Origin: an uncultured candidatus Porisulfidus sp.
GTDB taxonomy: Bacteria > Pseudomonadota > Gammaproteobacteria > Poriferisulfidales > Poriferisulfidaceae
Assembly (NCBI GenBank): GCA_965204575.1
Contig: OZ241993.1
Location: 128,001 to 192,000 of the forward strand
Direction: 5' to 3'
DNA length: 64,000 bases
The notes beneath the pieces were generated by a model that was given only the letters and a program-made list of their open reading frames with translations, was not told where the DNA came from and made no database searches. Both the position numbers and the translations under genes were made by a program. The stretch's first letter is position 1. Each line of letters starts with the position of its first letter. This document shows positions 7,686-62,038 of this stretch, piece by piece.

Positions 7686-7893
7686 ATGGAAAAACCCCTG
7701 ATTATCCGAAGAGGTCAGTCCATTGCCGACCGGGTCCCCCGCACTGTTGACAAGTCGGGCAATCCCGACTGGGCAGCAGGCTACCAGAAAATGATGGACC
7801 GATTGGAGAAAGGTGCTTCGCTTGGGGGTCTGAGAATCAAACGAGAAGAACTCTATGACGGGTAAAAACCGTTTTCCACTTGATGGCAATTAA
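7686..7893 (+). pseudogene. Remnant Phd/YefM-type antitoxin (59 aa) plus a 12-codon stub of a PIN/VapC toxin
   Basis: 7686-7865 MEKPLIIRRGQSIADRVP...LGGLRIKREELYDG; overlapping 7855-7893 MTGKNRFPLDGN-stop resembles the PIN N-terminal FxLDTN strand. Confidence 0.55.
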
Positions 7894-8981
7894 AACGAAA
7901 GAGTGCCGCGAAGGGTCAGGCCGCCGTCATTGAGCGCCCGAAAGTCTTCCCCGTTGCCTTCCACGTAATCCAGTTCCAGAGCCAGCGTGGAATCCGCACG
8001 CCAGTGGATTCCGAGCAGCATGGAATCCGAACTCTTCGCCAGGCTTTCGGCCCGGTTGTCGAGGTTCGCGTAGCGCACCACCAACTCCCAGATCCCTTCC
8101 TCGTCGCGCGGTTCGATGTGTGCCAGCAATCCGGGCGCGTAACGGCTTTGCGTCTGTTCGCCCGTAATTCTCCAGGCCCCGCGAATGTGGAAGCCATCCA
8201 CGTTCGACTTGGCGCGGTCATGAAATGCCTGACTTTCCCTCCGGTCTCTGGATTTCAGGTATTGGGCCTGGATCGCGTAGGACTCCTGCGAATAGCCGAT
8301 GTCGAAGGCCAGATACCGGCCGGAACCCTGCGATTCCCTCTCCTCGCCTGCCAGCATGTCGAGGCCCGCATCCTCTCCCCAATTGCTGAACGACTGGAAC
8401 GACAGTCCGACGTGCAGGAAGCTCCCGTCCTCGAAGCGCGGCGCCACCATCAACTTCGCCTGCACTTCCGTAGAATCCGCCAAGGCTGCATTTTCATCGT
8501 ATCCCCGGACTTGAAATGAGCCATACCAGGGAATTTCCTCTCCGTGCACGAATCCGACCACCACGGGGATTTGGGCATCCGAGTCGTCTCCATTCGGAGA
8601 TGTGGCAAAACGGCCCAATACGCCTTGTTCAATGGTCCGGAACCAGCGCTCGCGCAATGAGCCGCCCAGCATGGCCGAGGTCGAGGCCCATGAAGAAGGA
8701 TTGGCCAAACCACCACCGCTGCTTTGACCTGGAGTTTCTGATACGCCGCTTTCCGGCAACCCGGACTGATGCAGCTGGCTCTGCATGCGCATCATCAGTT
8801 CCTTCATGCGCGACCCTTCGTCCACCAGGCTGTCGATCTCGTTCTCCGACAATGCCTGCGCCGGAGCGGCCAACAGCAAACTCAGGCTCACGCAAGTGAG
8901 CTGAAAGGCAAAGCGCGGGGAAAGGCAAGCGGGCCAGCGGCTTTCCTTGGCCAAGCAACCCGGCGAGACTGGGGAATGCAA
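7890..8981 (-). CDS. Divergent, shortened OprO/OprP-family porin paralog
   Basis: SFLHVG, DGFHIRGAWRITGE, GIWELVVRY, LGIHW, C-terminal Phe; similar to the neighbouring porin; start uncertain. Confidence 0.7.
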   Translation of the reverse strand: MHSPVSPGCLAKESRWPACLSPRFAFQLTCVSLSLLLAAPAQALSENEIDSLVDEGSRMKELMMRMQSQLHQSGLPESGVSETPGQSSGGGLANPSSWASTSAMLGGSLRERWFRTIEQGVLGRFATSPNGDDSDAQIPVVVGFVHGEEIPWYGSFQVRGYDENAALADSTEVQAKLMVAPRFEDGSFLHVGLSFQSFSNWGEDAGLDMLAGEERESQGSGRYLAFDIGYSQESYAIQAQYLKSRDRRESQAFHDRAKSNVDGFHIRGAWRITGEQTQSRYAPGLLAHIEPRDEEGIWELVVRYANLDNRAESLAKSSDSMLLGIHWRADSTLALELDYVEGNGEDFRALNDGGLTLRGTLSF

Positions 8982-9197: not shown

Positions 9198-11063
9198 TCA
9201 GAACACGTACTGGCCTCGCAGCGAGAATGCCTGACCATCGTCTTCTTTGCACGCCCCACCGTCACTGAAGCTGTACGTGCCATCCTGCACTGTCGTCTCC
9301 CCGTCCGTGTATTCCTTGGGCGCTCCAGAGCAACCATCGATTTCCGAATCCACGTAGTTCAGCATGAACTTGACGTTCTTGTTGACGTACCAGTTCACAC
9401 CTAGAACCATGCGTTCCAGATCGGCACTCAGGCTTCTGCCGGGAATTTCCACTTCCGCGTCTTCGTAACGCGCAACCACTTCCCAGGCACCGCCTTCGTT
9501 TTTCGGCTTGATCGCGGCAAATGCGCCAGAGCCGGCCTTGTAACCGCGGGTCTCGCCCGTGAGGGTGTATGCAGCCTGCACGTAGAAGCCGTCCATCTCA
9601 ATATCGCAAGTATCCGAGAATTCATCTTCAAATGCTTCTTTCACTGCATCTTTTGCTGCAATCACCCGCGTGATTTCTCGCTCCCGGACAATGAAGTCTC
9701 CTTCAACAGTCGAATCCACAGTCGAACCAGCATCTACGGTTCCATCATTGTCAGTATCAGTAACAGCGCCAAATGACTGCCCGGCCTCATAACCGGCCAG
9801 ATCTTCCTGCGATACCCCTAAGTCAACTTCCACTTCCATGACAGACTGATCTGTGGCTGTTTCGTCTTCATCCGTAGCGGGATCGTCTGTCTCGATATTC
9901 GGATTACCCGTAGCGACCTCCATCACCAAGTATTTCTCCATTCCGAGGGGATCGCCATCCTCGCCCACCGTCACTGTCTGTTCTGGAACTGCAGCCTTAC
10001 TAGGCGTATACTCACCAGTTGCACTACAAGCAGCGTTGTCGGTCCCGTCAGACTCCACGTTCATGAATTCGCCCTGAAGCGAGAACGGACCATTGACGTA
10101 TGCAAGCTCAACACCAAACTGGTCGACGTCGTCGGACGCATGACTGTCGGAATTGAACGGACGTCCCGTAGTATGTACGCCCATGCGGGTGCGCATGCGA
10201 TGGTTGTTACCCTTGTAGTCTACGGTGTAGAACGAAGCACCTGCGTGTATGAAAGAGTTGTCGCCTAACTTCGGCATGATGGAGAAGCGGGCACCGATGC
10301 CATAGACATCACCGCCGTCATCTTCCTCAACCTCGTCATCGTAGACGCCAATCGCACCACTCATCGGCATGTCGCCCTTGGTCGCAAAACCGACCGAGAT
10401 ACCGCCGAAATCAGGTTTGCCGATAACAGCACCCGACAGTTCATTGACGATTGACCGCTCAATCGTTGAGATCCACTTGGAACTGGTGCGCTCTTCGAGC
10501 ATGCCCGGACGCTTGTATTTACCCAGCATCGCGTACATCGGCTTGCTGGAGTATTTCAGATAGCCGGTATCAACGTTCGCCTCGGAATCCTCGTGGTCGA
10601 TGTTGGTCGTGAACTTGTAGGACCAGTGCTTGCCGGACTTACCGCTCAAGGTGATGCGCGACCGACGAATCTCGTTTTCTTCCGCGTCTTCGCCATCCCA
10701 GAATTCATCATAGGAATCAAAGTCATACATCAGCCGGCCACCAATCTTGAACTGGTTGCCTTTGCTGGACTTGACCTTGATACCCCCACCGGTCGTGGAA
10801 ATAGTAATGTCTTCCTTCTTGGACTTGACCATGCCGCCTTTTTTCTGGTCGGCGCCTTCAGCCGCCTTTCTGGCCTGCTGCTCCATGGCATTGATCTTCA
10901 TCATGACTTCCTGCAACTGCTCCTGCATCTGCATCAGCATCTGCTTCATCTCGGCATTCTCCTGTTTGAGGTGGTTGATTTCCCCATCCGATGCCAAAAC
11001 AGATGCCGGCAATGCAATGGCCAGCGTTAGCGCAGCAGGAACTGCGAATTTTGATTTCCACAT
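9198..11063 (-). CDS. OprO/OprP family phosphate-selective porin with large loop insertion
   Basis: Signal peptide, IGGRLMYD, EIRRSRI, LEERTSSKWISTIERS, GFYVQAAYTLTGETRGY, GAWEVVARY, LGVNWY, terminal QYVF. Confidence 0.88.
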   Translation of the reverse strand: MWKSKFAVPAALTLAIALPASVLASDGEINHLKQENAEMKQMLMQMQEQLQEVMMKINAMEQQARKAAEGADQKKGGMVKSKKEDITISTTGGGIKVKSSKGNQFKIGGRLMYDFDSYDEFWDGEDAEENEIRRSRITLSGKSGKHWSYKFTTNIDHEDSEANVDTGYLKYSSKPMYAMLGKYKRPGMLEERTSSKWISTIERSIVNELSGAVIGKPDFGGISVGFATKGDMPMSGAIGVYDDEVEEDDGGDVYGIGARFSIMPKLGDNSFIHAGASFYTVDYKGNNHRMRTRMGVHTTGRPFNSDSHASDDVDQFGVELAYVNGPFSLQGEFMNVESDGTDNAACSATGEYTPSKAAVPEQTVTVGEDGDPLGMEKYLVMEVATGNPNIETDDPATDEDETATDQSVMEVEVDLGVSQEDLAGYEAGQSFGAVTDTDNDGTVDAGSTVDSTVEGDFIVREREITRVIAAKDAVKEAFEDEFSDTCDIEMDGFYVQAAYTLTGETRGYKAGSGAFAAIKPKNEGGAWEVVARYEDAEVEIPGRSLSADLERMVLGVNWYVNKNVKFMLNYVDSEIDGCSGAPKEYTDGETTVQDGTYSFSDGGACKEDDGQAFSLRGQYVF

Positions 11064-11285
11064 AACGTGGGAGCCTCCTGAGTGTTAAGGTTTGGGCAAA
11101 CCTCGCAATTACGTTGATGCGTACTCTAGGCAAAAAATATGACAAAAATATTGGCGAAAAACCCACAGTTTGTTGTTTTTCCTTGCCAAACCGCCCCTGC
11201 CTTCGCTCATGTCCGTGGTGCCCGCCACTGCAGAAATTCAGCGCAAGGATTAACGTGTAACCTGACAAATCAACTACTTATACAT

Positions 11286-11975
11286 TTACTCCGGCTCGCT
11301 GTTTTCCTGGTCCGTCGCCGATGTCCGGCTCCCCCAGCCATGCTCGACCGCAAGCACCGCCGCCGCGACCCGGGAAGTCACCCCCAGTTTTCGCAGAATC
11401 GCCTTGACATGGACCTTGACCGTGCCCTCGGAAATGCCCAGGTTGTCTCCAATTCCACGATTGCTCAGGCCTTCGGCAAGCAAGGCCAGAATCTCTTTCT
11501 CCCGAGGAGTCAAGACATCAAACGGACTCTCATCGCTTTCCGGGGGTTCCGGCTCCCGGCCCTGGACCACGCGGGCCAGCGCCGGTGTCAGGCTCGGCGC
11601 CACCACGGTCTCGCCCGCCTCGATGGAGCGCAATGCCACCACCAAGGCGTCCGGCTCCATGTCTTTCAGCAAATACCCGCTGGCTCCGGAACGTAGCGCT
11701 TCGACCAGATCCTTCTCCTCGTCACTCGTGGTCAGCATCACCACCGGCGGGCATTCCTCGCTTTCACGCAACTTCCGGAGGATTTCGAGCCCGTCGGTCT
11801 GCGGCAAGCGCAAGTCCAGCAACACGATGTCCGGACGGCGCCTGGCGATCGCCGCATAACCGGACTCGGCATCCCCCACCGAATCCAACACTTTCAACCC
11901 GTGACGCTCCAGCAAGCCCTGCAGGCCTTCCCGAAACAGGGTATGGTCATCGATGACGGTAACAGTTAACGTCAT
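11286..11975 (-). CDS. NarL/LuxR family response regulator
   Basis: REC domain (DDH, LLDLRLP, GYLLK) plus LuxR HTH (LTPREKEIL...TVKVHV). Confidence 0.93.
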   Translation of the reverse strand: MTLTVTVIDDHTLFREGLQGLLERHGLKVLDSVGDAESGYAAIARRRPDIVLLDLRLPQTDGLEILRKLRESEECPPVVMLTTSDEEKDLVEALRSGASGYLLKDMEPDALVVALRSIEAGETVVAPSLTPALARVVQGREPEPPESDESPFDVLTPREKEILALLAEGLSNRGIGDNLGISEGTVKVHVKAILRKLGVTSRVAAAVLAVEHGWGSRTSATDQENSEPE

Positions 11976-12892
11976 GCCGCCTTGGCCCTCTCCGGCATCG
12001 CCTTGAACTCAAGCAATATTCGCACACCCTCCTCCGGCTCGCTCTCCACCCGCAGCCTTCCTCCCAGGCGCATCGCCCGGTCCTGCAACAGGCTCAACCC
12101 GATATGGGTTCCCTGCCCTTCCCGCGGCGGGTCCGCGAACCCCACCCCGTCGTCTTCCACCAACACCCGGCAGTTCCCGCCCTCCGCATCGCCTGAAATC
12201 AGGACGCGCACCGTGCTGGCCTGCGCATGCTTGCGCGCATTGGCCAGGGCTTCCTGCACAATGCGCACGATTTGCAACTCGTGCTCGGCCGGCAGTTTCA
12301 AATCCTCCCACCGAGTCTGCAGCAGCACGCGAACGTCTGGACAATCCCGCCGAAAGCGCTCCACCGTCCTCTCAATGGCCGGCAACAGCCCCGCTTCGCT
12401 GATCGGCACACGGAAATGCGCGATCAGTTCTCGCAACTCGATGTTGGCTTCCTCCAGGCTCTCCTCGATCCTTTCGAGTTCCTCCCAGGTTCGTTCTTCG
12501 TCTCCTTGATGCAAGGTTTCGTCCAGCACTCGCACTTGCATCTTGATTCCGGCCAGAGTCTGCGCCAAGGAATCATGCAACTCCCCGGACAACCGGGTGC
12601 GTTCCTTCATGGCGGTATAGTTGCTGAATTCCTGCAACTGCTCTTCCGTGTCCCGCGACAGGGTCTGAACCATTTCGGCAAGCACGTTCAGGTCGGTCGC
12701 AAGTTCTGCGAAATCGCCTTTCGGCGGCACCGGTACTCTCGCCGACAGTTCACCCCCGCGCATGCGGAATACCCATTGCCGGATGGCTTCGTAAGGAGCC
12801 ATCCTTTGCCGGTACACCCAAATCAAGAATGCGGCGGCGGCTCCCAGAAGCAGACCGAATACGATAAATCCTGGCGTACCCAATCCAAGCAT
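11972..12892 (-). CDS. NarX/NarQ-like HisKA_3 histidine kinase, single TM plus HAMP, no extracytoplasmic sensor
   Basis: ELHDSLAQ H-box, EALANARKH N-box, DDGVGF, HIGL. Confidence 0.9.
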   Translation of the reverse strand: MLGLGTPGFIVFGLLLGAAAAFLIWVYRQRMAPYEAIRQWVFRMRGGELSARVPVPPKGDFAELATDLNVLAEMVQTLSRDTEEQLQEFSNYTAMKERTRLSGELHDSLAQTLAGIKMQVRVLDETLHQGDEERTWEELERIEESLEEANIELRELIAHFRVPISEAGLLPAIERTVERFRRDCPDVRVLLQTRWEDLKLPAEHELQIVRIVQEALANARKHAQASTVRVLISGDAEGGNCRVLVEDDGVGFADPPREGQGTHIGLSLLQDRAMRLGGRLRVESEPEEGVRILLEFKAMPERAKAA

Positions 12893-13227
12893 TACTCTTT
12901 CGGCGGCACGTAAGCGGGATCATTCGGGTTGAGAAAGATGAACTGCTTCTGGCCCGGCTCAAGTTCCACGAAATCCACGGTCAGCCCCCGCGTCAAGGCC
13001 AGACTGTCGGCTCCAACCACCACCGGGATCTTGCGCAGGCTGAACCTTTGATCACCCTCGTGGCTCTCCACGTCAAACCCCATCGCATACTGGAAACTGC
13101 CGTCTTCAAGCTTGCGCACGGCCAAACGCAAGGCCACGCCTTCCTCGTTTTCCGGCAATTGCTCACGGATTTGGTCTGCCGCCGGTTCCGTCAAGGTCAA
13201 AAAGTCGGGCACATCGCTCTCCAGCAC
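12892..13227 (-). CDS. dsrR: Cys-less IscA/HesB-fold protein, DsrR-like
   Basis: LTEPAADQI, LRLA, YAMGFD, DFVELEPGQKQFIFLNPNDPAYVPP match my recollection of Allochromatium DsrR; no cysteines. Confidence 0.75.
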   Translation of the reverse strand: MLESDVPDFLTLTEPAADQIREQLPENEEGVALRLAVRKLEDGSFQYAMGFDVESHEGDQRFSLRKIPVVVGADSLALTRGLTVDFVELEPGQKQFIFLNPNDPAYVPPKE

Positions 13228-13447
13228 CTATATAGAGCCTTCATGATACAAGGGAATCGCTTTCCTAATCCAACCGCATCGCATCACTACTTGTTTCCAG
13301 CACCCGGGCAACTGGCAATTCGGGAAGTTGACTCTACAAACTTGACGCACGGCAGGATTCGTCCATAATTGGAGTCGGCGATTGAGGCGGCCGCTGTCTA
13401 GGTGTGGCGGCGTGGTCCTGATGGCCAGCGAATATAACTAAAAATCC

Positions 13448-14803
13448 ATGAGGAAACTTATGAGAAAAACTACTTTTTGCACGGGGCTGGCAATGGCAGC
13501 TGCGATGGCGTGGACCGTTCCGGCACTTGCGGATGAAACCTGCATGTCGCCGTACATTGCCAAGATTCAAGGCCAGGAAGATTACGTCTATGTCTGGACC
13601 TTGGGCGTGGAAGGCATGGGGGACGAGCAGGACAAGCTGGTCACCATCGACACCAACCCCGAATCCAAAACCTATGGCCAAGTGGTCAGCGTACTGTCCG
13701 TCGGTGGGCGCAACGAAGCGCACCATTCCGGACTGTCTGACGATCGCCATTACCTGTGGGCCGGCGGACTGGACTCCAGCAAGGTCTTCGTGTTCGACAT
13801 CCACAGCAACCCGCGGCAGCCTAAACTGCACAAGGTCATCACCGACTTCGTCGAGAAGTCCGGCGGACTGGTTGGCCCGCACACCTTCTATGCCCTACCC
13901 GGGCGGATGATGATTACGGCGCTGTCCAACAACGCCGATCACGGCGGACGCACCGGCGTGGCTGAATACAACAACGATGGCGAATTCGTGGCGTCCCACT
14001 GGATGCCGACGGACGAAGACCTTCGCGGCGCGGTCAAGACCGGCCAGCACGCCGACGGCTACGGCTACGACCTTCGGGTCAAGGCTGAAAGCAACGTGAT
14101 GCTGACCTCGTCCTTCACCGGCTGGTCCAACTACATGATGGACTTCGGCCAGATGCTGCAGGACAGTGCTGCCATGCAGCGCTTCGGCAACACCATGGTG
14201 GTGTGGGACATGCATGCCCGCAAGCCGCTCAAGGTGCTGGACGTGCCGGGGGCTCCACTGGAGATCCGCTGCGCCTGGGACCCGGATCACCGCTACTGCT
14301 TCACCACGACGGCGCTGACCTCCCAGGTCTGGCTCCTGTACGAGGATGAAGCCGGCGAATGGCACGGCAAGGCCGTCGCCGATGTCGGGGTTCCTTCCGA
14401 AATCCCCCTGCCGGTGGACATTTCCATCACGGCCGACGACACGGGATTGTGGATCAACACCTTCATGGACGGCAAGACCCGCTACTTCGACATTTCCGAC
14501 CCGAATGCGCCCAAGCAGGTCTTCGAGGAAGTGATCGGAAGCCAGGTCAACATGGTCTCCCAGAGCTGGGACGGCGACCGCGTTTACTTCTCCAGTTCCC
14601 TGCTGAACAACTGGGACAAGACGGGTGAAGCAGACGAGCAGTACGTCAAGCTCTACCACTGGGATGGCGAAGCACTCGCACACCAGTGGACGGTTGATTT
14701 CTATGCCGAGCAGTTGGGCCGTTCGCACCAGATGCGTTTCGGCGCCTATGCCCTGTACGGCAAGCGCCCAGATGCTGACACCCGGACCGCGATGGCCGAA
14801 TAA
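13448..14803 (+). CDS. mtoX: Methanethiol oxidase (SBP56 family), periplasmic
   Basis: Signal peptide then DETCMSPY; EAHH, GPHT, SSFTGW, SLLNNWDK (candidate TTQ Trp pair); SCO and mauG downstream. Confidence 0.9.
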   Translation: MRKLMRKTTFCTGLAMAAAMAWTVPALADETCMSPYIAKIQGQEDYVYVWTLGVEGMGDEQDKLVTIDTNPESKTYGQVVSVLSVGGRNEAHHSGLSDDRHYLWAGGLDSSKVFVFDIHSNPRQPKLHKVITDFVEKSGGLVGPHTFYALPGRMMITALSNNADHGGRTGVAEYNNDGEFVASHWMPTDEDLRGAVKTGQHADGYGYDLRVKAESNVMLTSSFTGWSNYMMDFGQMLQDSAAMQRFGNTMVVWDMHARKPLKVLDVPGAPLEIRCAWDPDHRYCFTTTALTSQVWLLYEDEAGEWHGKAVADVGVPSEIPLPVDISITADDTGLWINTFMDGKTRYFDISDPNAPKQVFEEVIGSQVNMVSQSWDGDRVYFSSSLLNNWDKTGEADEQYVKLYHWDGEALAHQWTVDFYAEQLGRSHQMRFGAYALYGKRPDADTRTAMAE

Positions 14804-14919: not shown

Positions 14920-15612
14920 ATGAATCGTTTGAACCGTATCCGTACCCTAGCCGGGTTGGCTGCCCTGAGCCTGATCTCAGGGGGATTCGAGGCTGTCGCA
15001 GAAGATGAAATTCTCGCGCCCGGATGGAAAAACCTGAGCTACGAACCGCCTGCTGTAGGCAGTTACCAACTGCCTCCCATCACCCACGCCTCCGACGGGG
15101 CCGTACTCCTCGAAGACGGCCAGGAGTCTCAGCTGTTCGACCTGATGGGTGACCGTCTCGTGCTGTTCAGCTTCATCTACACTCGATGCAACGACATCAA
15201 CGGCTGCCCTCTCGCCAACGCGGTCTTTCACAAGCTCCAGGCGAAACTGCAGGAGCGCCCGGATGTCGCCCAGGCCACACGGCTTCTATCGATATCGTTC
15301 GACCCGGAGCGCGACACCCCCGAAGTCATGCGGGAATTCGGGCAGGGGCTTGGCGGCGACGGAGTGGACTGGCAGTTCCTCACCACGCAGGACCGCGGAA
15401 CCCTGGAGCCGATCCTCGACGATTACGGCCAGTACACCATACGCGAATACGATGAAAGCGGAGAATACACCGGCGATTTCGCTCATATGCTGCGGGTGTT
15501 CCTGATCGACCGAGAGTTGCGCGTCCGCAACATCTACAGCGTCGCATTCCTGCATGCCGACATCCTGATCAACGACCTGGAGACTCTCCTCCTGGAGTCT
15601 CCCCCTAGCTGA
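14920..15612 (+). CDS. SCO1/SenC family copper chaperone
   Basis: FIYTRCNDINGCP, SISFDPERDTP, conserved His (FAHML), signal peptide. Confidence 0.9.
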   Translation: MNRLNRIRTLAGLAALSLISGGFEAVAEDEILAPGWKNLSYEPPAVGSYQLPPITHASDGAVLLEDGQESQLFDLMGDRLVLFSFIYTRCNDINGCPLANAVFHKLQAKLQERPDVAQATRLLSISFDPERDTPEVMREFGQGLGGDGVDWQFLTTQDRGTLEPILDDYGQYTIREYDESGEYTGDFAHMLRVFLIDRELRVRNIYSVAFLHADILINDLETLLLESPPS

Positions 15613-15620
15613 TTCCCGTC

Positions 15621-16985
15621 ATGTACAACCCGGCACGGATGCGTTTTCGCACCCTTGCCGTAGCCCTTGCCGTTACGAGTCTTTGCGTTGCGGCCTTTGC
15701 CGAGACCAGCGGCGAACTGGATGCCCCGGAGAAGTTCGACACCAGCCAAACGCAAGGACCCGGAGACGTCAAGGAAGGCTATGAAAGCAGGGACTACGAG
15801 ACTCGCTCGCGAAGCCTGCTGAAGCGCCGTGGCGTCAAGAAAGACCTGATTCGTTTCGCGCAAAACCCGCCGTTGGGCCTGCCGCCCGTACCCATCCCGG
15901 CTGAAAACCCGCTGACCCGCGCCAAGATCGATCTCGGCCGAAAACTGTTCTTCGACCGTCGCCTGTCGATCAACGACACCTTCGCCTGCGCGACTTGCCA
16001 CATCCCGGAACAGGGCTTCACCAACAACGAAATGCGCACCGCAGTCGGCGTGGAGGGCCGCTCGGTACTGCGCAACTCCCCCACCCTCTACAACGTTGCC
16101 TACCTGGCACGGCTGTTCTTGGACGGCCGCGAAATCAGCCTGGAAAACCAGATCTGGCAGCCGATGACCGCACACAACGAGATGGCGGCACCCTCGATCG
16201 GCTGGATCATCAACAAGATCCGCCGCATGCGCGACTACGACGGGTTGTTCGAGAAGGCCTTCGGCGGCTCAGGCCCGGACATCCTCACGGTCGGCCAGGC
16301 GCTGGCCAGCTATCAACGCACCCTGCTGGCGGCCAACTCGCCATTCGACCGATGGTATTTCGGGAATCAGACCGATGCGGTCGATGAGTCCGTCAAGCGG
16401 GGCTTCGGGGTCTTCTCCGGAAAGGGCCAGTGCATCGTGTGCCACACCATGCAGAAGGAACACGCCCTGTTCACCGACCAGAAATTCCACAACACGGGAC
16501 TGGGCTACATGATCTCGTTCAGCAAGGGCTCCAAGGACGCACCCAAGACCACCCGCGTCCAACTCGCGCCTGGCGTGTTCGTGGACGTGTCGAACGAGAA
16601 AATCGAAGCGGTCTCGCAACAGAAACTGCCAAACGATCTCGGCCTCTACCGGGTCACCGAAAACCCGAACGACCGCTGGCGGTTCCGGACCCAGAGCCTG
16701 CGCAATGTCGAGTTGACCGCGCCCTACATGCACAACGGCAAATTCGACACCCTTCGCGAAGTGATCGACTTCTACGACCAGGGCGGCATCCCAAATGAGC
16801 TGTTGTCCCCCTTTATCTCTCCCCTCAACCTCAGCGAACAGGAAAAACAGGACTTGGAAGCGTTCCTGCTTTCCTTGACCGGCAGCACCATCCCGGAAAT
16901 CGTGGCCGATGCCTTTGCCGCACCGATCGGCGACCTGAGCCTGGAAGACCCCAACTGGGCACACGAAGAAACGCTGGGATACTGA
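15621..16985 (+). CDS. mauG: MauG-like di-heme cytochrome c peroxidase (TTQ maturation)
   Basis: Two CXXCH (CATCH, CIVCH), LGRKLFFDRRLS, RNSPTL, LRNVELTAPYMHNG. Confidence 0.85.
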   Translation: MYNPARMRFRTLAVALAVTSLCVAAFAETSGELDAPEKFDTSQTQGPGDVKEGYESRDYETRSRSLLKRRGVKKDLIRFAQNPPLGLPPVPIPAENPLTRAKIDLGRKLFFDRRLSINDTFACATCHIPEQGFTNNEMRTAVGVEGRSVLRNSPTLYNVAYLARLFLDGREISLENQIWQPMTAHNEMAAPSIGWIINKIRRMRDYDGLFEKAFGGSGPDILTVGQALASYQRTLLAANSPFDRWYFGNQTDAVDESVKRGFGVFSGKGQCIVCHTMQKEHALFTDQKFHNTGLGYMISFSKGSKDAPKTTRVQLAPGVFVDVSNEKIEAVSQQKLPNDLGLYRVTENPNDRWRFRTQSLRNVELTAPYMHNGKFDTLREVIDFYDQGGIPNELLSPFISPLNLSEQEKQDLEAFLLSLTGSTIPEIVADAFAAPIGDLSLEDPNWAHEETLGY

Positions 16986-16986
16986 C

Positions 16987-17490
16987 ATGAGCCGTTTCAT
17001 CGCCCTGCTGCTCGGCGGCGCGCTTGCCCTGGGCACGATCAGTTGCAGCGACGAACCCGAATTGATGGAGCAGGCATCCGGGAAGCAAGCCCCCGACTTC
17101 GTGCTTCCAGATCTGGACGGCCAATCCTGGCAACTGAGCCAGGCTCGCGGCCAGACCCTGCTAATCAACTTCTGGGCCACCTGGTGTGAACCATGCCGGC
17201 TCGAGATGCCCGCGTTGAGCCGACTCCATGAGGCCATGGCCGGCAAAGACTTCCAGGTCATCGGCATCCATGTCGGCCCCAGCAAGGAAATCGACCGTTT
17301 CCTCGAAGAAGCCCCCGTCGGTTTTCCGATCCTGATCGATGCGGAGCTGGCTCTGGCGGACTGGAACGTTCCGGTGCTGCCCGCAACCTTCCTGATTGAT
17401 GCAGAAGGATATGCCCGCTACTGGGCGTTTGGAGAACGAGAATGGGATTCGCCGGAAGCTGTGGAATTCTTCACCGCGGTTCTGGACTGA
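16987..17490 (+). CDS. TlpA family thiol-disulfide oxidoreductase lipoprotein
   Basis: NFWATWCEPC, lipobox-like TISC. Confidence 0.9.
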   Translation: MSRFIALLLGGALALGTISCSDEPELMEQASGKQAPDFVLPDLDGQSWQLSQARGQTLLINFWATWCEPCRLEMPALSRLHEAMAGKDFQVIGIHVGPSKEIDRFLEEAPVGFPILIDAELALADWNVPVLPATFLIDAEGYARYWAFGEREWDSPEAVEFFTAVLD

Positions 17491-18413: not shown

Positions 18414-18818
18414 TCAACCCTCAATCTCTATGCGCGACCGAAACCAACTGGCCAGTTCGCTTTCGCTGATTCCGCCTCCCACAACCTCTTCCATAGTCCT
18501 GACAGCGTCGAAAGGATCGAATTCGAGGTTCTGGTCATTGTCAGCCAGAAACACGCACGCCGTAACCCAGGCCGTGCGCTTTTTCCCGTCGGCAACGCCA
18601 TGATTCCGGGCCAAGCCGAAAGCGTAAGCCGCAGCCAGTTCGGCAATGTCGGGATCACCATTTGCGGAAAGATTCGTCGGATGCGCTAACGCGGATTTGA
18701 GCATACCCAAGTCGCGGACATCGGATGTGCCGCCATGCTCCGCGACTTGGCGGTCATGGACCGCGAGAACGACGGGCAGGGCAACCCAACGCCATGGACT
18801 GGAAATCTCTGCGCTCAC
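18414..18818 (-). CDS. Doc (death-on-curing, Fic) toxin with degenerate active site
   Basis: HDRQVAEHGG, AAAYAFGLARNH; motif HGVADGKKRT versus consensus HxFxDGNKRT. Confidence 0.8.
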   Translation of the reverse strand: MSAEISSPWRWVALPVVLAVHDRQVAEHGGTSDVRDLGMLKSALAHPTNLSANGDPDIAELAAAYAFGLARNHGVADGKKRTAWVTACVFLADNDQNLEFDPFDAVRTMEEVVGGGISESELASWFRSRIEIEG

Positions 18819-19042
18819 TTGGCCAAAGCCCGCAATACCTCTCGGTCATCATGCATCACTTTCTCCGCATGAACCATCTGGCGTTCAAACTCAGGGTCGT
18901 ACGGAGTCAACCGATAGCTGCCATCCGGCGCCTCGGTCATGTATAGCGTGTCACCCTTCTCGACCCCGAGACGTGCCATCGCCTCTTTGGTCAAAATGAT
19001 ACCGGCGGAAGAACCCACCGTGGTTACTTTGAAAGACAGCAT
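18815..19042 (-). CDS. AbrB/MazE family antitoxin
   Basis: KVTTVGSSAGIIL, LTPYDPEF, REVLRALAK; GTGA overlap with doc. Confidence 0.85.
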   Translation of the reverse strand: MLSFKVTTVGSSAGIILTKEAMARLGVEKGDTLYMTEAPDGSYRLTPYDPEFERQMVHAEKVMHDDREVLRALAK

Positions 19043-20662: not shown

Positions 20663-20947
20663 ATGAAAAAATCACACTCTCTGGCATCCAGCCTGATCGT
20701 GCTGGCACTCGGCTCCGGCCTGGCTTCTACTTCCGCGCTGGCGGTTCCCGATGCCCCCAAGAACTGGGAGAAATGCACGGGCATCTCCAAGGCCGGAATG
20801 AACGACTGCGGCGCGACGGATGGCGCGCACCGATGTGCTGGCGCAGCTCCGGAAGACGGCATGGAAACCGAATGGATCTATGTTCCGGAAGGCACCTGCG
20901 AGAAGATCGTGGGCGGGGCCATATACGCAGTCAAGCCGGCAAAATAA
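20663..20947 (+). CDS. bufA1: DUF2282 / BufA1 bufferin precursor
   Basis: Signal peptide; [14 protein letters not shown]...HRCAG...[15 protein letters not shown] four-Cys pattern. Confidence 0.88.
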
Positions 20948-20954
20948 CCCTTCG

Positions 20955-21791
20955 ATGCCTGCCGCCGATACGGCGACTCCACTCACGGGAATGGGGGTCG
21001 GTTTACGCGGCCCCCACGTCCCGGACATCCTGCAGCAGAGCCCTGCGGTTCCCTGGTTCGAGCTTCTGACCGACAACCATTTGTGCGCAGGAGGCGCCCT
21101 CAGGTTCCAGGCCGAAGCCATCGCCGAGCAATATCCGGTGGCCCTGCACGGCGTCAACCTTTCTCTCGGCGGCGTTGACCCGCTGGATCGCGAATATCTT
21201 GGCCGGGTTCGGGCTCTCGCCAAAAACACCGCAGCCCGCCATGTCTCGGAACATCTTGCTTTCACGGCCTGCAACGGCATCCACAGCCATGACCTCCTTC
21301 CATTGCCATGGACCGAGGAAGCCCTGCGACACGTCGCCGGCCGGATCTCCGAGGTCCAGGATTTTCTCGGCCATGACATCCTGGTCGAGAACATTTCCAC
21401 TTACCTGGAATACGAACATTCCACTCTGAGCGAAGGCGATTTCCTGCTGGAACTCTGCACACGGACCGGTTGCAAACTTCTCCTGGACATCAACAATGTC
21501 TACGTCAACTCGGTCAACCACAGCCACGATCCACACGACCTGTTGGACGCCATGCCCTGGGCACATGTGCGCGAGGTTCATCTGGCGGGTCACGAGGAAC
21601 GCGATGGGCTTTTGATCGATACGCACGGGGGATGCGTCTGTGATGAGGTTCTGAACCTTTTCCTGGACGTGGTGCCACGCATCCCGGAGGTTCCGGTCCT
21701 GTTCGAGTGGGACACTTCGCTGCCTCCATGGCCTGTCGTCTGGCAGGAAACCCAGCGGCTTGACAAGGCCTATCAGGCCGCGTGCGCATGA
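20955..21791 (+). CDS. bufB: DUF692 multinuclear non-heme iron oxidase (MNIO, BufB)
   Basis: GVGLR, LHGVNLSLG, SEHL, VENIS, LLDINNVYVN, EVHLAGH, IDTH, EWD. Confidence 0.92.
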   Translation: MPAADTATPLTGMGVGLRGPHVPDILQQSPAVPWFELLTDNHLCAGGALRFQAEAIAEQYPVALHGVNLSLGGVDPLDREYLGRVRALAKNTAARHVSEHLAFTACNGIHSHDLLPLPWTEEALRHVAGRISEVQDFLGHDILVENISTYLEYEHSTLSEGDFLLELCTRTGCKLLLDINNVYVNSVNHSHDPHDLLDAMPWAHVREVHLAGHEERDGLLIDTHGGCVCDEVLNLFLDVVPRIPEVPVLFEWDTSLPPWPVVWQETQRLDKAYQAACA

Positions 21792-22570
21792 ATCTTTCGG
21801 AACTCCAGACCAAGATGCTGGAAGCGGTAACCCGAACGGGAAGCGCAGACCCCGGGCTCGACTCCTTGATCCCCCCGGCCCGCGGCATCCGCCCGGAAAT
21901 GCGGCTGGACGCCTACCGGACCAACGTCAGAGGAGCGCACTTGGAAGCACTGGATGCCGCTTATCCGGTGACCCGGGAGGTCTTGGGGCCCCGGTACTGG
22001 CGGCAACTTCTAACGCAGGAAATCCCGGCATTCGGATCCCGGTCTCCCGATCTGCATGAATACGGCGATTTCCTACCCGAACTGCTCGGCCGGGTGCAGG
22101 AAAGTCGCAAGGAATTGGCCGATCTCGATTATCTCGGTGAACTCGCGCAACTCGAATGGCAAGTCCACCTGGCACAATTCAAGGCACCGGATCCGGATTT
22201 TGACTGGGTCGCCTTTCAAGCCCTGGAATCGGATCACCAGATGCGGGTTCAGTTCACTCTGAGCCATGCATTGCACTTGATGCGGTTCTCCCAGCCCGTC
22301 GACGCGCTCTGGCATTCTCATCAGGAAAACGGCCTGGTTCTCCCACCCCAGTCTCCGGTAACCTGCTGCGTGCACAGGCAAAAATCGTTCGATGTGACCG
22401 TCACCCGGCTATCCGACAGCGATCAAAAGTTGCTGGAAGCGCTGGGCGAAGGTCAGTGTCTCGAAGCCTTGCCTGCCGGCGATTCGCAAACAACAGTCCA
22501 GGTATTGTTCGACTGGATTCAACTCGGGTGGATCAGCGGCTTCTCGCAGGGGCCGGGTCACCTGTCGTAA
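21788..22570 (+). CDS. bufC: DUF2063 MNIO partner protein (BufC/HvfC)
   Basis: RLDAYRTNV, ALDAAYPV, DLHEYG, ELAQLEW; ATGA coupling to DUF692. Confidence 0.85.
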   Translation: MNLSELQTKMLEAVTRTGSADPGLDSLIPPARGIRPEMRLDAYRTNVRGAHLEALDAAYPVTREVLGPRYWRQLLTQEIPAFGSRSPDLHEYGDFLPELLGRVQESRKELADLDYLGELAQLEWQVHLAQFKAPDPDFDWVAFQALESDHQMRVQFTLSHALHLMRFSQPVDALWHSHQENGLVLPPQSPVTCCVHRQKSFDVTVTRLSDSDQKLLEALGEGQCLEALPAGDSQTTVQVLFDWIQLGWISGFSQGPGHLS

Positions 22571-22576
22571 CGCGAC

Positions 22577-22840
22577 TCAAGACGCCAATTTCTTGTAGAG
22601 CGAGCCAAACCGAGCGTGACTCGTCCGATAGGCGCGCACTGCCTGAGGCCGCACTTTCCCCTGATGCCGGTCTTCAAGAAGATGCTCAAAGGCTTCTTCG
22701 GTAATCGCCTGGATCTGACGCCCTTCCCCTTTCGCCAAAGCACGCACTTTGTCGAGCAGCTTGCGATCTATTTGCGTTGTGAAATTGACGCGAGAGGGCG
22801 ACAGGGGTTTCTCCGGAACTTTCGTTTGGATTCGTGTCAT
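22577..22840 (-). CDS. Ribbon-helix-helix antitoxin-like protein
   Basis: FTTQIDRKLLDKVRALAKGEGRQIQAITEEAF RHH pattern; ATGA overlap with the zeta-like gene. Confidence 0.7.
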   Translation of the reverse strand: MTRIQTKVPEKPLSPSRVNFTTQIDRKLLDKVRALAKGEGRQIQAITEEAFEHLLEDRHQGKVRPQAVRAYRTSHARFGSLYKKLAS

Positions 22841-23472
22841 TTTCCTCTGTAGGTTTCGATCTGGGGCCGGTACATCCTGGATGCCCAGTCGGGGATGGGG
22901 TCCGCCAGTCGGGTGATCCTTCCCTTGGCCAGAGTCATCACGGACTGGTACGTTATACCTGAGTGGCAGGATTGGCGGGAGTTGTCCCAAACATAGGTGA
23001 AATCAGCGACCATGCTCGCTTTTTGGATGTGGGTCACGGTGCGGCTGTAACGCGAGAGGATCTTGTCTTTGTGCACGTCGTGGCCACCGGAGCCGACTCG
23101 ATCCCGAACCCGCTTGTAAGCCAGTTCTGCGGGATAGACATGGATGTGGTTCAGCACGACTTCGAACCCGGCGTGTTGGGCATCTTCAACCAGCTGGTTC
23201 TTCGACTCATGCGAGAAAACCGTTTCAGTGACGAAAGACTGTCTCACCTTTATATACTGGGCACGAATTCCAGCAGCCAGCTTGCCCATTTCGAGACTAT
23301 GTTTTCCGACCTCGTTGGGAAATCTGGCTTGCTCCATTTCGTCAGCATTGACGAATGGGTACTCGCACCCGGACTTGTCCAGGAGGGGCTTGGCCCGTTG
23401 ATAGTAAAACGTGGTTTTTCCAGCGCCATTGATGCCGCAGATAAGGATTAAGACGGGCTTCTCAATCGCCAT
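22837..23472 (-). CDS. Zeta toxin / AAA_33 family P-loop kinase
   Basis: GINGAGKTT Walker A, VNADE, ETVFS, RVRDRVGSGGHDV, WDNS. Confidence 0.85.
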   Translation of the reverse strand: MAIEKPVLILICGINGAGKTTFYYQRAKPLLDKSGCEYPFVNADEMEQARFPNEVGKHSLEMGKLAAGIRAQYIKVRQSFVTETVFSHESKNQLVEDAQHAGFEVVLNHIHVYPAELAYKRVRDRVGSGGHDVHKDKILSRYSRTVTHIQKASMVADFTYVWDNSRQSCHSGITYQSVMTLAKGRITRLADPIPDWASRMYRPQIETYRGK

Positions 23473-28075: not shown

Positions 28076-28441
28076 TTACGGGGAAAACGAGGAACCGCAG
28101 CCACAGGTGGTCGTGGCGTTGGGATTCCGGATTACGAACTGCGCACCTTCCAGGCCCTCGGTGTAGTCGATCTCAGACCCAACCAGGTACTGGAAACTCA
28201 TCGGATCAATCAGAAGGGTCACCCCGTCATTCTCGACCTGGGTGTCGCCGTCCTGGATCTCCTCATCGAACGTGAATCCATACTGAAACCCGGAACAACC
28301 GCCGCCACTGACGAAGACACGCAGCTTCAGCGCGTCGTTCCTCTCTTCCTCGATCAACTGCTTCACTTTCTGCGCAGCCGAATCGGTAAAAATCAAGGGC
28401 GCAGCCGAATCCATCTCGGGGGCGGGCATTGCTTCGCTCAT
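28076..28441 (-). CDS. erpA: Fe-S cluster insertion protein ErpA
   Basis: [25 protein letters not shown]. Confidence 0.95.
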
Positions 28442-35672: not shown

Positions 35673-37099
35673 GTGTGGAAAGCCGTGATAGAGTACACGA
35701 TCATGCACCGAGCCTCCCGCTACCGTCTGTATCCGAACCAGACGCAGGAGCGGCAGTTCGCTCGGCTGTGCGGGGCCGGGCGGTTCGTCTACAACGAGTT
35801 GCTGGCTGACCAGATCCGGGAATACGAGCGTTTCGAGGCCGGCGAGAGAGACAGGCCGGGTGCCTCCGAGTTTGATTTCGGGAGGCGGTATGCGCGCCTG
35901 AAAACACAGGAAGGCTACGAGTGGCTGCGGGAGTTGTCGGCTGTGGTCGTCCGCGGCACGGGCGCCTTTCCCCTGGGATCAGCCTTCGCGCATTTCTCCC
36001 GTCGGATCCGGGAGGGCCAGTGCGGCAAGCCGACCGGGTTCCCCCGTTTCAAGGTCAAGGGCGTCAGCCGGGAGTCGTTCACGATCCCGGAGGCCGTGAA
36101 GATCCGGAGCAAGCGATTTTGGGTGCCGAAGATCGGCTGGGTCCGGATGAACCGCAAGGCGCAATCGCGCGCGCGGGGGGCCGACCCCTGGGACGGCGGC
36201 GAAGCCAAGACCGCGGTGGTGTACCGGGAACTGGGCAAGTGGTATGTGTCGGTGCTTTGGGAGGTGGAAGATCCGGACTGGCGCTGGCATGGCGGGGTCT
36301 GCGGCATCGACCGCAACTCGGAAAACCTCGCGGGGGCCTGGAGCGGAGGGCGGAGGCTGATCGAGATTCCGTACGAGCGGATCGGGAAGTACGAGGCGCG
36401 AGCCCGGCACTACCAGTGGTGGGCGAGCCGCCGGGAGCGGATCGAGCTGAAGGACTCCGACGGGGAGCCGGTGCGCACGAAGTCGGGCAAGAAGATCAAG
36501 GTGGCCTCGAACCGGCGCCAGCGGTTGCAGTTGCGCGCGGCGAAGGCGAAGCGCAAGGCGGCGGAGATCCGCCGGGACTTCAGTCACCAGGCCTCGGCGG
36601 ACCTGGCTCGGAACTTCCAGCACATCGTGCTGGAGGAGCTGGACGTACAGGCGATGCGGCGCTCGGCGCGGGGGACAAGGGAGAGACCGGGGAGAAACGT
36701 CAAGGCGAAGTCCGCGCTGAACCGGAAGATGGCGCAGTCCTCCTGCATGGGGATGGTGGACCGTTTTCTGAAGTACAAGGCTTGGGACCTGATCCGGGTG
36801 CCAGCACGAAACACCAGTCGGGCGTGCGCGGAATGCGGGCACACCGAACAGGACAACCGAAAGGAGCAGGCGCACTTCCAGTGTCGGGCCTGCGGGCACA
36901 CGGACCATGCGGACCTCAATGCCGCGCGAAATATTCTGAATTTGGGCTTGGAAAAGCTCTTGGCCGGAGGCGCTCCGGTGACGGGACGGGGAGGGGACAA
37001 CGAAGCGGGGGCATTCTTCTTTGAGTGCCTAGTGGAGACCGCCGACGATCCGTCAACGATGCAGTGGAATTACCGGGGCTCGCCCCCTGATTTCCACAC
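35673..37099 (+). mobile_element. Non-autonomous tnpB-only (IS1341-like, IS200/IS605 superfamily) element; ends inferred
   Basis: Only tnpB between divergent dinF and thiE; bounded by GTGTGGAAA (35673-35681) and TTTCCACAC (37091-37099); G-rich coding strand unlike neighbours. Confidence 0.7.
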
Positions 37100-37103
37100 T
37101 TAA
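35703..37103 (+). CDS. tnpB: RNA-guided endonuclease TnpB
   Basis: YRLYPN HTH_OrfB start, GFPRFK, RuvC D (GIDRN), E (VLEEL), D (ADLNAARNI), Zn finger CAECG/CRACG. Confidence 0.95.
   Translation: MHRASRYRLYPNQTQERQFARLCGAGRFVYNELLADQIREYERFEAGERDRPGASEFDFGRRYARLKTQEGYEWLRELSAVVVRGTGAFPLGSAFAHFSRRIREGQCGKPTGFPRFKVKGVSRESFTIPEAVKIRSKRFWVPKIGWVRMNRKAQSRARGADPWDGGEAKTAVVYRELGKWYVSVLWEVEDPDWRWHGGVCGIDRNSENLAGAWSGGRRLIEIPYERIGKYEARARHYQWWASRRERIELKDSDGEPVRTKSGKKIKVASNRRQRLQLRAAKAKRKAAEIRRDFSHQASADLARNFQHIVLEELDVQAMRRSARGTRERPGRNVKAKSALNRKMAQSSCMGMVDRFLKYKAWDLIRVPARNTSRACAECGHTEQDNRKEQAHFQCRACGHTDHADLNAARNILNLGLEKLLAGGAPVTGRGGDNEAGAFFFECLVETADDPSTMQWNYRGSPPDFHT
36960..37099 (+). ncRNA. Putative TnpB omega/reRNA scaffold overlapping the tnpB 3' end
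   Basis: Nested stems TGACGGGA/TCCGTCA, GGCATTC/GAGTGCC and terminal hairpin GTGGAA..GGGG-CTCG-CCCC..TTCCAC; position expected for TnpB guide RNAs. Confidence 0.55.
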
Positions 37104-55667: not shown

Positions 55668-56293
55668 CGGTTCAAGTCCCTCCTCAAGGCAACGAAACGG
55701 CTTTCGACCCATTCGGGCAATACGAAAGTGGACAGGCTCGGATGGGGTGCCCGGTACCGGTAGCAGACGCGGACCACCAGGTAGATCGGCCTCGCGAAGT
55801 TGCGAGCCGTCACGACACCTGGAGCTGGAAAGAGTTCTTCGGTGAACGCGGAGACCACGTCCACATCGCCGGGGCATTCCTCGCCGACCTCCCACGGCAG
55901 ATAGAACCTGCCTCGTCCACGATCGACGGAATACCAGACCGCTTCGATGCCGATTCCGCCAACGTCTCCGTCATTGTCCACCATCATATCGACCAACCGC
56001 AACCAATGCTCCTGGCTCAGATCGATGGCGTTGTAGACCGCGCCCAATAGGGCCGCAACCCGGTTGTCTGGGTCGGGCACCACGGGACGCTCATCGACCA
56101 CGACTTCGGCGAACGAAGCGGTCGCCCTGTGGACGGCGGCGCGGACAAGCAGGTATCGACCGACATCGAATGCACCGTAGAGCAGGATCAGCAGGACGGG
56201 AATGATCAGGGCGGTCTCGACCGCGACGTCGCCGCGCGAACCGGCGCCCGGCCGGTCACGTCGCCTGCCCGCCTCACCGGAAAGCGGGCTCAT
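55664..56293 (-). CDS. TadE/TadF-like pseudopilin
   Basis: RGDVAVETALIIPVLL prepilin motif. Confidence 0.8.
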   Translation of the reverse strand: MSPLSGEAGRRRDRPGAGSRGDVAVETALIIPVLLILLYGAFDVGRYLLVRAAVHRATASFAEVVVDERPVVPDPDNRVAALLGAVYNAIDLSQEHWLRLVDMMVDNDGDVGGIGIEAVWYSVDRGRGRFYLPWEVGEECPGDVDVVSAFTEELFPAPGVVTARNFARPIYLVVRVCYRYRAPHPSLSTFVLPEWVESRFVALRRDLNR

Positions 56294-56717
56294 TCCGTCT
56301 AATCTCCACGAATTCGAGATCCACCGGCTCCCACGCCCGTTCGCCGAGGTTGCCAAAGAACGAATAGGCGTAACGCATCTCGTAGCGGACGACGTCGCCC
56401 GCGCCTCCGAGACCGGCCGTCGTGCTGTCGGCGATGCCAGAAACCCCGCTCGATGAGAATGCCTCGACCTCCAGTTCTTCCGGATCGATCAGCTGGACTT
56501 CGAATGCCTCCGCAAGCGCTTTCGCGTTCGCCTCAAGGTCGCGGTTTTCACCGAGCTTCGCCTGCCAAATCACCTGCTCGAGGACATCCTGCAACTGAAT
56601 ATTGACGTAGAAAAACCTGGTGACCTCGAAAACGAAAAGCGCCAGCGTGAGAAACGCCGGAAACACAAGCGCGAACTGGACGGACGTGAAACCCCGCTCC
56701 GATTTCACGGACATCAC
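56274..56717 (-). CDS. tadE: TadE-like pseudopilin
   Basis: RGFTSVQFALVFP, GLGGAGDVVRY, C-terminal RNEP. Confidence 0.8.
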   Translation of the reverse strand: MMSVKSERGFTSVQFALVFPAFLTLALFVFEVTRFFYVNIQLQDVLEQVIWQAKLGENRDLEANAKALAEAFEVQLIDPEELEVEAFSSSGVSGIADSTTAGLGGAGDVVRYEMRYAYSFFGNLGERAWEPVDLEFVEIRRNEPAFR

Positions 56718-58371: not shown

Positions 58372-58379
58372 CCCGGCTC

Positions 58380-61640: not shown

Positions 61641-61641
61641 C

Positions 61642-62028: not shown

Positions 62029-62038
62029 GCTTGAATCC

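Follow-up and report, generated by a model that had tools for sequence, protein, structure and literature searches.

What is a DsrR-family gene doing outside a dsr operon, coupled to genes for a histidine kinase and a response regulator and facing a methanethiol oxidase gene? The question is raised by a 64,000-nucleotide stretch of DNA (here, the window) from an uncultured Candidatus Porisulfidus sp. (GenBank assembly GCA_965204575.1, contig OZ241993.1, positions 128,001 to 192,000, forward strand); Ca. Porisulfidus has reportedly been described with a reverse-dsr pathway. To our knowledge, the regulation of reverse-dsr sulfur oxidation in chemolithotrophs and symbionts is largely unknown. For DsrR of Allochromatium, post-transcriptional control of dsr expression was reportedly proposed by Grimm et al. 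in 2010. In two papers, the function of DsrR is described as "still not resolved" (PMC3368242) and the protein as participating in "regulation of sulfur oxidation" (PMC11406059).

Here, we report that DsrR, kinase, and regulator genes recur together as a predicted Dsr-associated signaling module, with DsrR as a probable partner of the kinase (probability, roughly 0.55). An earlier reading of the window made from its letters alone (the sequence-only reading) had proposed a sulfur-sensing three-component system linked to methanethiol degradation. Of that proposal, the co-occurrence of DsrR, kinase, and regulator proved to be conserved. The trio is not specific to methanethiol; it is the detached form of a module normally found after dsrN-dsrR. 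The genes in question were as follows.

11286-11975, minus strand: response regulator gene (229-amino-acid open reading frame [ORF]; NarL family, receiver domain plus GerE/LuxR helix-turn-helix)
11972-12892, minus strand: kinase gene (306 amino acids; HisKA_3, one transmembrane helix, HAMP-like helix-loop-helix, DHp His106, ATPase domain)
12892-13227, minus strand: DsrR-family gene (111-amino-acid listed ORF; IscA fold, no Cys)
13448-14803, plus strand: mtoX (451-amino-acid listed ORF; methanethiol oxidase, SBP56 family)
28076-28441, minus strand: ErpA (with C...CGC motif)

The DsrR-family protein and its conserved neighbors

The small protein matched A. vinosum DsrR (2K4Z) best among PDB chains (phmmer; E value, 3.6e-20; 75.7 bits), followed by AQ_1857, the highest-scoring IscA-type chain (E value, 4.5e-7; 33.5 bits). 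It fell under every cut-off of the NCBIfam IscA/SufA/ErpA models and scored 29.8 bits with Pfam Fe-S_biosyn. Its AlphaFold2 model (pLDDT, 86.3) was placed by Foldseek nearest to 2K4Z (template modeling [TM] score, 0.76; 44% identity), then to IscA 1R94 (TM score, 0.72) and SufA 2D2A (TM score, 0.70). The protein contains zero Cys residues, conserved Cys were absent across 48 aligned relatives, and a C-terminal block, ELEPGQ..FIFLNP.DP.Y.PP (FIFLNPNDP.Y.PP in the window), was invariant or nearly so in these relatives and shared with 2K4Z. Judged by its matches and modeled fold, the protein is a member of the DsrR family and not a generic HesB/IscA protein. The DsrR identity given by the sequence-only reading stood up, 2K4Z being both the best PDB match and the closest fold, and clustering with generic HesB was not seen; the IscA fold without Cys and the presence of a normal erpA at 28 kb were likewise confirmed.

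The DsrR-like gene probably starts at GTG 13212, which gives 106 amino acids and is preferred because the homologs have that length. Its stop overlaps the kinase start (TAATG on the gene strand, 12890-12894; CATTA on the plus strand), and the kinase stop overlaps the regulator start (ATGA on the gene strand, 11975-11972). The divergent spacer between dsrR and mtoX (13228-13447) is 220 bp, or 247 bp if the revised starts are used (13212 for dsrR and 13460, the second ATG and probably the true start, for mtoX). ORFs, overlaps, and the 220-bp divergent region were all as first read. No dsr or sox family was recognized among 56 window ORFs (9 scanned with Pfam/NCBIfam and 47 more at E ≤ 1e-8, 15 of which matched nothing), in agreement with the earlier remark that the window holds no other dsr genes. 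Allochromatium DsrR and the window protein thus have in common the IscA fold minus the cluster-binding cysteines, the 44% identity, and the C-terminal block, and differ in that the window gene lies outside a dsr operon, start/stop-coupled to a kinase gene, unlike 54 of the 74 related loci assessable upstream, where dsrR sits inside a dsr operon after dsrN.

A one-genome-per-species scan returned 411 stretches encoding relatives of the small protein; the best 80 (L001 to L080) were taken with up to 8 kb of flank on each side, and locus ORFs were called, matched to the window proteins, and clustered, with clusters named using NCBIfam and Pfam. The commonest order was dsrM-K-L-J-O-P-N, dsrR, a kinase of ~520 to 560 amino acids, and a NarL-type regulator. 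A same-strand kinase of this family lay ≤500 bp downstream of dsrR in 65 of 75 loci (those in which ≥900 bp follow dsrR) and ≤2 kb downstream in 67, figures of which the former may overstate the frequency among all DsrR genes, because the 80 loci were the best of 411. With the kinase directly after dsrR in those 65 loci, and in most cases a NarL-type regulator next, the conservation of the trio expected from the window was borne out. Among the 70 loci assessable on both sides, dsrR was accompanied by dsrN and the kinase in 45, by the kinase without dsrN in 16, by dsrN without the kinase in 6, and by neither in 3; L078 was scored as dsrN-adjacent through dsrN fragments around a duplicated inserted cassette. 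In gene order, the trio is a conserved unit of gammaproteobacterial sulfur oxidizers, normally forming the 3′ end of the reverse-dsr operon.

Three further observations concern these loci. The inserted cassette of L078 (L078:2184-7760), in which a dsrN 3′ fragment accompanies a glucose/sorbosone-dehydrogenase-cytochrome c gene, occurs twice between dsrN and dsrR and looks like a segmental duplication within the dsr operon. Two other genes recur over the range L015 to L080: a rhodanese gene downstream, after the regulator, in 21 of 80 loci (e.g., L045:4828-5295), and a gene for a ~485-amino-acid protein with a 2Fe-2S ferredoxin domain and ferredoxin-reductase-like similarity, downstream in 18 of 80 and mostly between kinase and regulator (e.g., L052:10051-11505). 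Both may belong to the same module.

The trio was not confined to dsr operons. The window and L001 to L014, which are metagenome-assembled genomes titled Candidatus Porisulfidus, Chromatiales, or Gammaproteobacteria, formed one clade in the DsrR tree (100/99; the Porisulfidus-type loci). All 14 of these loci carried dsrR, a 303- to 308-amino-acid kinase, and the regulator, with no dsr genes within the fetched flanks, and a 1- or 4-nucleotide dsrR/kinase overlap was present in 13 of the 14 and in L072. As read from these gene orders, the trio of the window's clade has become separated from the dsr operon, its genes now coupled by start/stop overlaps. Detached trios were also found in L026, L048, and L072, beside pyruvate dehydrogenase, porin, or isc genes, bringing to 17 the loci with an intact trio away from dsrN, with at least two separate origins (two changes for L026, L048, and L072, plus the Porisulfidus-type clade). 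Complete chromosomes bearing a detached trio are OZ243950.1, OY288106.1, OZ220694.1, OZ220480.1, OZ244883.1, OZ251520.1, and OY764335.1. Alone of the dsr genes, dsrR has left the operon with the kinase and regulator more than once, which argues that DsrR belongs functionally with the two-component system; this repeated joint detachment is the main evidence for the proposed partnership. The L026 genome probably keeps its dsr genes elsewhere, because a DsrN homolog was found on a contig of 1,846,438 bp, the same size as the L026 chromosome.

The kinase family, its reduced forms, and the regulator

Pfam recognized HisKA_3 (56.3 bits) and HATPase_c (54.5 bits) in the window kinase, with no PAS and no GAF; HAMP (18.0 bits; cut-off, 25) and HAMP_2 (17.2 bits; cut-off, 24.3) were below threshold, compared with 28.6 to 40.6 bits in relatives. 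One hydrophobic stretch spans residues ~8 to 27 (also in the 95%-identical L001 kinase), with ~5 residues outside. The AlphaFold2 model consisted of a helix (6 to 45), a loop, a long helix (60 to 129), a helix (132 to 160), and the ATPase domain, with nothing more; residues 28 to 76, the HAMP region, formed a helix-loop-helix. By sequence and model, a periplasmic ligand-binding domain between two transmembrane helices is absent, and the protein passes from HAMP straight to the DHp domain. The window kinase shares the HAMP-region motif of its family (W..MRGG.LSARVP ... LSRDTE.QLQ), and the kinase alignment contained an invariant ELHDSLAQ block, an invariant H106, and no conserved Cys. A kinase with one transmembrane helix and no periplasmic, PAS, or GAF domain is what had been described before, and Pfam and the model agree; the HAMP domain also described then appears here as a HAMP-like region, with Pfam scores below threshold.

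A library search with the kinase gave 186,800 matches at E ≤ 1e-3 and only 215 at E ≤ 1e-30 (representatives); by this measure, the kinase belongs to a narrow family. Among the best 150 representatives, 103 are at least 430 amino acids long, and 82 of these 103 align (≥35% identity over ≥80% of the shorter protein) to dsrR-linked kinases outside the window's clade. The long relatives have two transmembrane helices (separated by a loop of ~10 to 15 residues), HAMP, a ~200-residue stretch, HisKA_3, and HATPase_c. Of eight long kinases scanned, five (L016, L019, L045, L055, and L060, the last from Thiohalophilus thiocyanatoxydans DSM 16326) received a Pfam GAF call for the ~200-residue stretch, and no Pfam family was found in it for the other three (L030, L048, and L053). 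Because the relatives possess two transmembrane helices, HAMP, and this stretch, the "sensor-less" state is a secondary loss: as the comparison of domain layouts indicates, the kinase of the window's clade is a reduced form that lost one transmembrane helix and the ~200 residues between HAMP and DHp. A kinase tree (DHp plus ATPase parts) recovered the window's clade as monophyletic (support, 100). Its placement among the long-stretch kinases depended on an unstarred branch (75), and the outgroup was imperfect. In the same tree, the reduced kinases of L026, L072, and L078 (359 to 378 amino acids) formed a second clade of separate origin.

The regulator scored 97.9 bits with Response_reg and 77.7 bits with GerE in Pfam and 201.8 bits with NCBIfam NarL, not reaching the cut-off of 250; its closest solved structure was Escherichia coli NarL (1A04; E value, 4e-43). 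The window kinase scored 153 bits with NCBIfam NarQ (cut-off, 553) and 125 bits with NarX (cut-off, 578). The nearest familiar system is therefore NarX/NarQ-NarL, which the module resembles in combining a HisKA_3 plus HATPase_c kinase that has a HAMP-like region with a regulator nearest NarL. NarX and NarQ carry a GAF domain between HAMP and DHp, as do the relatives of the window kinase wherever Pfam called it. The module differs in that the kinases examined lack a periplasmic sensor domain, in scores far under the NarQ, NarX, and NarL equivalog cut-offs, and in a genomic context of sulfur oxidation.

DsrR as a candidate partner of the kinase

In the module as we propose it, cytoplasmic DsrR would be an accessory subunit that modulates the membrane-anchored HisKA_3 kinase, with a contact possibly at the HAMP/DHp region, and it would possibly be the main input of the kinase where the ~200-residue stretch is gone. 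The kinase would phosphorylate the NarL-family regulator, which would control transcription of sulfur-oxidation genes, in trans if a dsr operon is present elsewhere in the genome of the window. Direct persulfide chemistry or a thiol switch on either protein is unlikely, because DsrR has no Cys and the kinase no conserved Cys; the signal would more plausibly be a bound partner protein or a small ligand. A mirror-tree comparison over 32 loci gave r values of 0.91 for DsrR-kinase (partial r, 0.64, controlled for DsrN and DsrP) and 0.91 for kinase-regulator (partial r, 0.46), which is weak evidence because all pairs within one operon correlate.

Several results weigh against a partnership, in addition to the selection of loci noted above. 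In dsr-linked loci, dsrR and the kinase are separated by 3 to 130 bp, with no overlap. DsrR was found without such a kinase in its locus in 8 of 75 cases, and with the kinase >1 kb away in 2 more. In L039, a DsrS-family gene (automatic name from the Atlas; score, 0.98) comes after dsrN-dsrR, and there is no kinase. DsrR must therefore also act independently of the kinase or with different partners. A search for DsrR-kinase fusions found no protein of 196 to 2,000 amino acids with a DsrR-like part (itself weak evidence), and a DsrR domain was present in none of the best 150 kinase representatives. Adjacency could also have a simple cause, namely that the gene for a regulator came to lie at the end of the operon under its control. 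As for dsr genes elsewhere in the Porisulfidus-type genomes, among the best 120 of 8,000 matches in a DsrN search (>~48% identity), none was on a contig with the length of a Porisulfidus-type chromosome.

Much of this would suit a reading in which DsrR and the two-component system are neighbors rather than partners and moved together only through contiguity. DsrR would then do a job of its own (the post-transcriptional dsr control mentioned above or a maturation role beside DsrN), and kinase and regulator would be an ordinary dsr-regulating system encoded at the operon end. The loci without a kinase, the DsrS gene in L039, and the lack of fusions fit such an arrangement, as does the retention by most kinase relatives of the ~200-residue stretch (GAF in the five noted), possibly a self-sufficient input. 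It accounts poorly, however, for the 17 intact trios away from dsrN and their separate origins, for a dsrR-kinase junction that tightened to 1- or 4-nucleotide overlaps where the kinase lost its candidate input domain, and for the loss of that domain at least twice with dsrR retained. We regard mere neighborhood as possible, though the odds are against it.

DsrS-family genes were seen at L039:2894-4066 and L051:11452-12564. In A. vinosum, dsrS follows dsrR, the order also seen in L039; dsr operons may end either in dsrS or in the kinase-regulator pair. Four other loci (L036, L040, L065, and L066, two of whose records are titled Porisulfidus) formed a separate DsrR clade (100*), in which dsrR, at ~8001-8327 in full-length loci, sits between a guanylate kinase gene and a peptidase S24-like gene with no dsr genes or kinase of the trio nearby.

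A stronger form of the partnership, which we offer only tentatively, would make DsrR the input subunit of a dedicated kinase, an IscA-fold co-sensor that has given up Fe-S binding. Through such a co-sensor, the HAMP-containing HisKA_3 kinase would be informed of a sulfur metabolite or of how the Dsr sulfur relay stands, and kinases without the HAMP-DHp stretch would have no other input; in the sponge-associated clade, methanethiol oxidase and anion porins may have become targets of the module through rewiring. LiaF-LiaS and BceAB-BceS are examples of systems in which the kinase depends on an accessory protein. The likeness to these lies in a minimal or absent extracytoplasmic domain and in a small non-kinase protein encoded with a regulator in one operon, and LiaS was among the NCBIfam matches of the window kinase; the difference is that the candidate accessory protein here, whose interaction with the kinase is hypothetical, has a soluble IscA fold and is neither a membrane protein nor a transporter.

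The methanethiol oxidase and porin genes as candidate targets

Four transcription units converge on 7.9 to 17.5 kb of the window, and in the Porisulfidus-type clade the targets of the regulator may include the flanking mtoX operon or two porin genes. The features concerned were as follows.

14920-15612, plus strand: SCO1/SenC gene (mtoX accessory; Pfam and NCBIfam)
15621-16985, plus strand: MauG-like di-heme peroxidase gene (mtoX accessory; CCP_MauG, Pfam and NCBIfam)
16987-17490, plus strand: TlpA/ResA-like thioredoxin gene (mtoX accessory; Pfam and NCBIfam)
13342-13369, plus strand: sigma-70-like mtoX promoter, TTGACG-16-CATAAT (consensus scan and alignment)
13243-13248, minus strand: −10-like element, TATCAT on the gene strand, ~30 nucleotides upstream of the DsrR-like start
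9198-11063, minus strand: porin A, OprO/P family (Pfam Porin_O_P, 156.1 bits), directly downstream of the regulator
7890-8981, minus strand: second porin (porin B), OprO/P family (Pfam Porin_O_P, 32.2 bits)
11064-11285: block upstream of porin A, strongly conserved

MtoX passed the NCBIfam MthilOxMtoX equivalog cut-off (747.2 bits; cut-off, 650) and matched Pfam SBP56, and with SCO1 and MauG genes downstream, the methanethiol oxidase named by the sequence-only reading was confirmed. The order mtoX-SCO1-mauG corresponds to the arrangement published for Ruegeria pomeroyi (PMC5739008); enzyme, maturation genes, and order are the same, whereas the window has no IclR gene (the type of the regulator in R. 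pomeroyi), has the trio as a neighbor, and has an extra TlpA-like gene after mauG.

MtoX matches were confined to L001 to L013, with none in L014 or in the 66 other loci. The mtoX operon was divergent and ≤3.3 kb upstream in 11 of the 13 assessable Porisulfidus-type loci, with a short, window-like spacer in only 4 of 13 (L001, L005, L008, and L011) and 0.6 to 3.3 kb of other DNA between mtoX and the trio in 7 (L006, L009, L004, L012, L003, L010, and L002; in L002, a CoiA-like gene plus a MauJ-domain gene); L013 had a weaker MtoX match 6.4 kb away. The block from folP to the porins is syntenic across the Porisulfidus-type loci, and the adjacency of mtoX, lying within this conserved synteny, is one evolutionary event that carries no independent weight.

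The mtoX promoter agrees with the consensus at 10 of 12 positions and was invariant or nearly so in all 12 aligned sequences. A TAT(C/T)AT-type block upstream of dsrR, probably the −10 element of the trio promoter, was kept across the Porisulfidus-type loci, including those in which insertions split off mtoX; the DNA between the dsrR and mtoX promoter elements was conserved only among the closest relatives. When the conserved sequences preceding dsrR, mtoX, and porin A were compared for a shared operator, only the 6-mer ACGCAC was found, common to mtoX and porin A. Repeats detected in the spacers were all short and no larger than expected by chance. With no operator shared among the promoter regions, the naming of a regulator site was dropped.

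The ~70-nucleotide mtoX leader (13377-13447) was almost invariant in the 12 aligned sequences and better conserved than the DNA that precedes the −35 element. An RNA element in the mtoX 5′ untranslated region was considered and rejected: Rfam gave no match at E ≤ 1, and the consensus fold was weak (−4.18 kcal/mol; covariation term, +0.88), with the input ranges of L006 and L012 misplaced. A covarying hairpin upstream of dsrR was also set aside, being better explained as the −10-like element (14 sequences read).

In the link drawn by the sequence-only reading, sulfide or some other methanethiol oxidation product would be sensed by the trio, which would control the divergent mtoX operon and so couple organosulfur degradation to sulfide oxidation. 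MtoX produces H2S, according to PMC5739008 and a preprint (bioRxiv 10.64898/2025.12.05.692484), the operon is divergent and close in the 11 loci given above, and no other regulator gene stands beside mtoX in the window. The association arose only once, however, and inside a conserved synteny; the 66 other loci lack MtoX; insertions separate the two units in 7 of 11 loci, leaving a conserved promoter of its own on each side; and, apart from the one 6-mer, the region before mtoX has no conserved word in common with those before dsrR or the porin. The near-consensus promoter (10/12) does not suggest that mtoX depends on an activator, and the only characterized mtoX regulator is IclR-type (PMC5739008). 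The link fared poorly, being limited to one clade, with a short spacer in 4 of 13 loci and no conserved motif common to the promoters. From its position, control of mtoX by the module is possible; sensing and coupling of this kind as its function we consider improbable.

The porins raise a similar alternative, namely that in the window's clade the module mainly controls two OprO/P-type anion porins, which might, for example, take up sulfur oxyanions or polysulfide. Regulator, porin A, and porin B follow one another on the same strand in 11 of the 14 Porisulfidus-type loci (porin A within ~0.7 kb after the regulator), the block upstream of porin A is strongly conserved, and in L048 the detached trio is directly preceded by a porin gene. 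Set against this, the synteny comes from one clade only, and the trio promoter and porin upstream region have no common motif. Porin control is possible from position; as the main task of the module, it seems unlikely to us. In porin A itself (621 amino acids), the OprO/P-type barrel is interrupted midway by a long acidic insertion rich in Asp, Glu, and Thr; the Pfam match falls in two stretches.

Elsewhere in the window, an MbnB/TglH/ChrH (DUF692) gene overlaps a DUF2063 gene (20820-22570), a combination often met in peptide-modifying clusters. A 75-amino-acid ORF just upstream overlaps a Fic/DOC-domain ORF (18414-19042; a probable toxin-antitoxin pair), and further ORFs carry a Zeta-toxin domain (22837-23472) or resemble TnpB/IS605 OrfB (35673-37103; Cas12f1-like TNB domain plus HTH_OrfB_IS605). 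Tad/Flp-type pilus genes, including TadE-like, tetratricopeptide repeat protein, T2SSE ATPase, and secretin genes, occupy 56274-63472.

Literature searches returned no description of a kinase-regulator pair linked to dsrR, although subscription journals or supplementary files may hold one. What appears to be new here is that the candidate accessory protein of a two-component system has an unexpected fold; the methanethiol link is the least supported part. A kinase-regulator pair that travels with dsrR offers concrete candidates for the regulation of reverse-dsr sulfur oxidation, and DsrR, long an unexplained "regulatory" protein, gains a concrete candidate partner. If DsrR is indeed an input subunit, the "regulatory" phenotype of dsrR mutants would have an explanation, and two-component systems would gain a new class of accessory sensor. 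If the rewiring toward mtoX is functional, the turnover of organosulfur compounds (methanethiol, derived from dimethylsulfoniopropionate [DMSP]) would be linked to sulfide oxidation in sponge symbionts.

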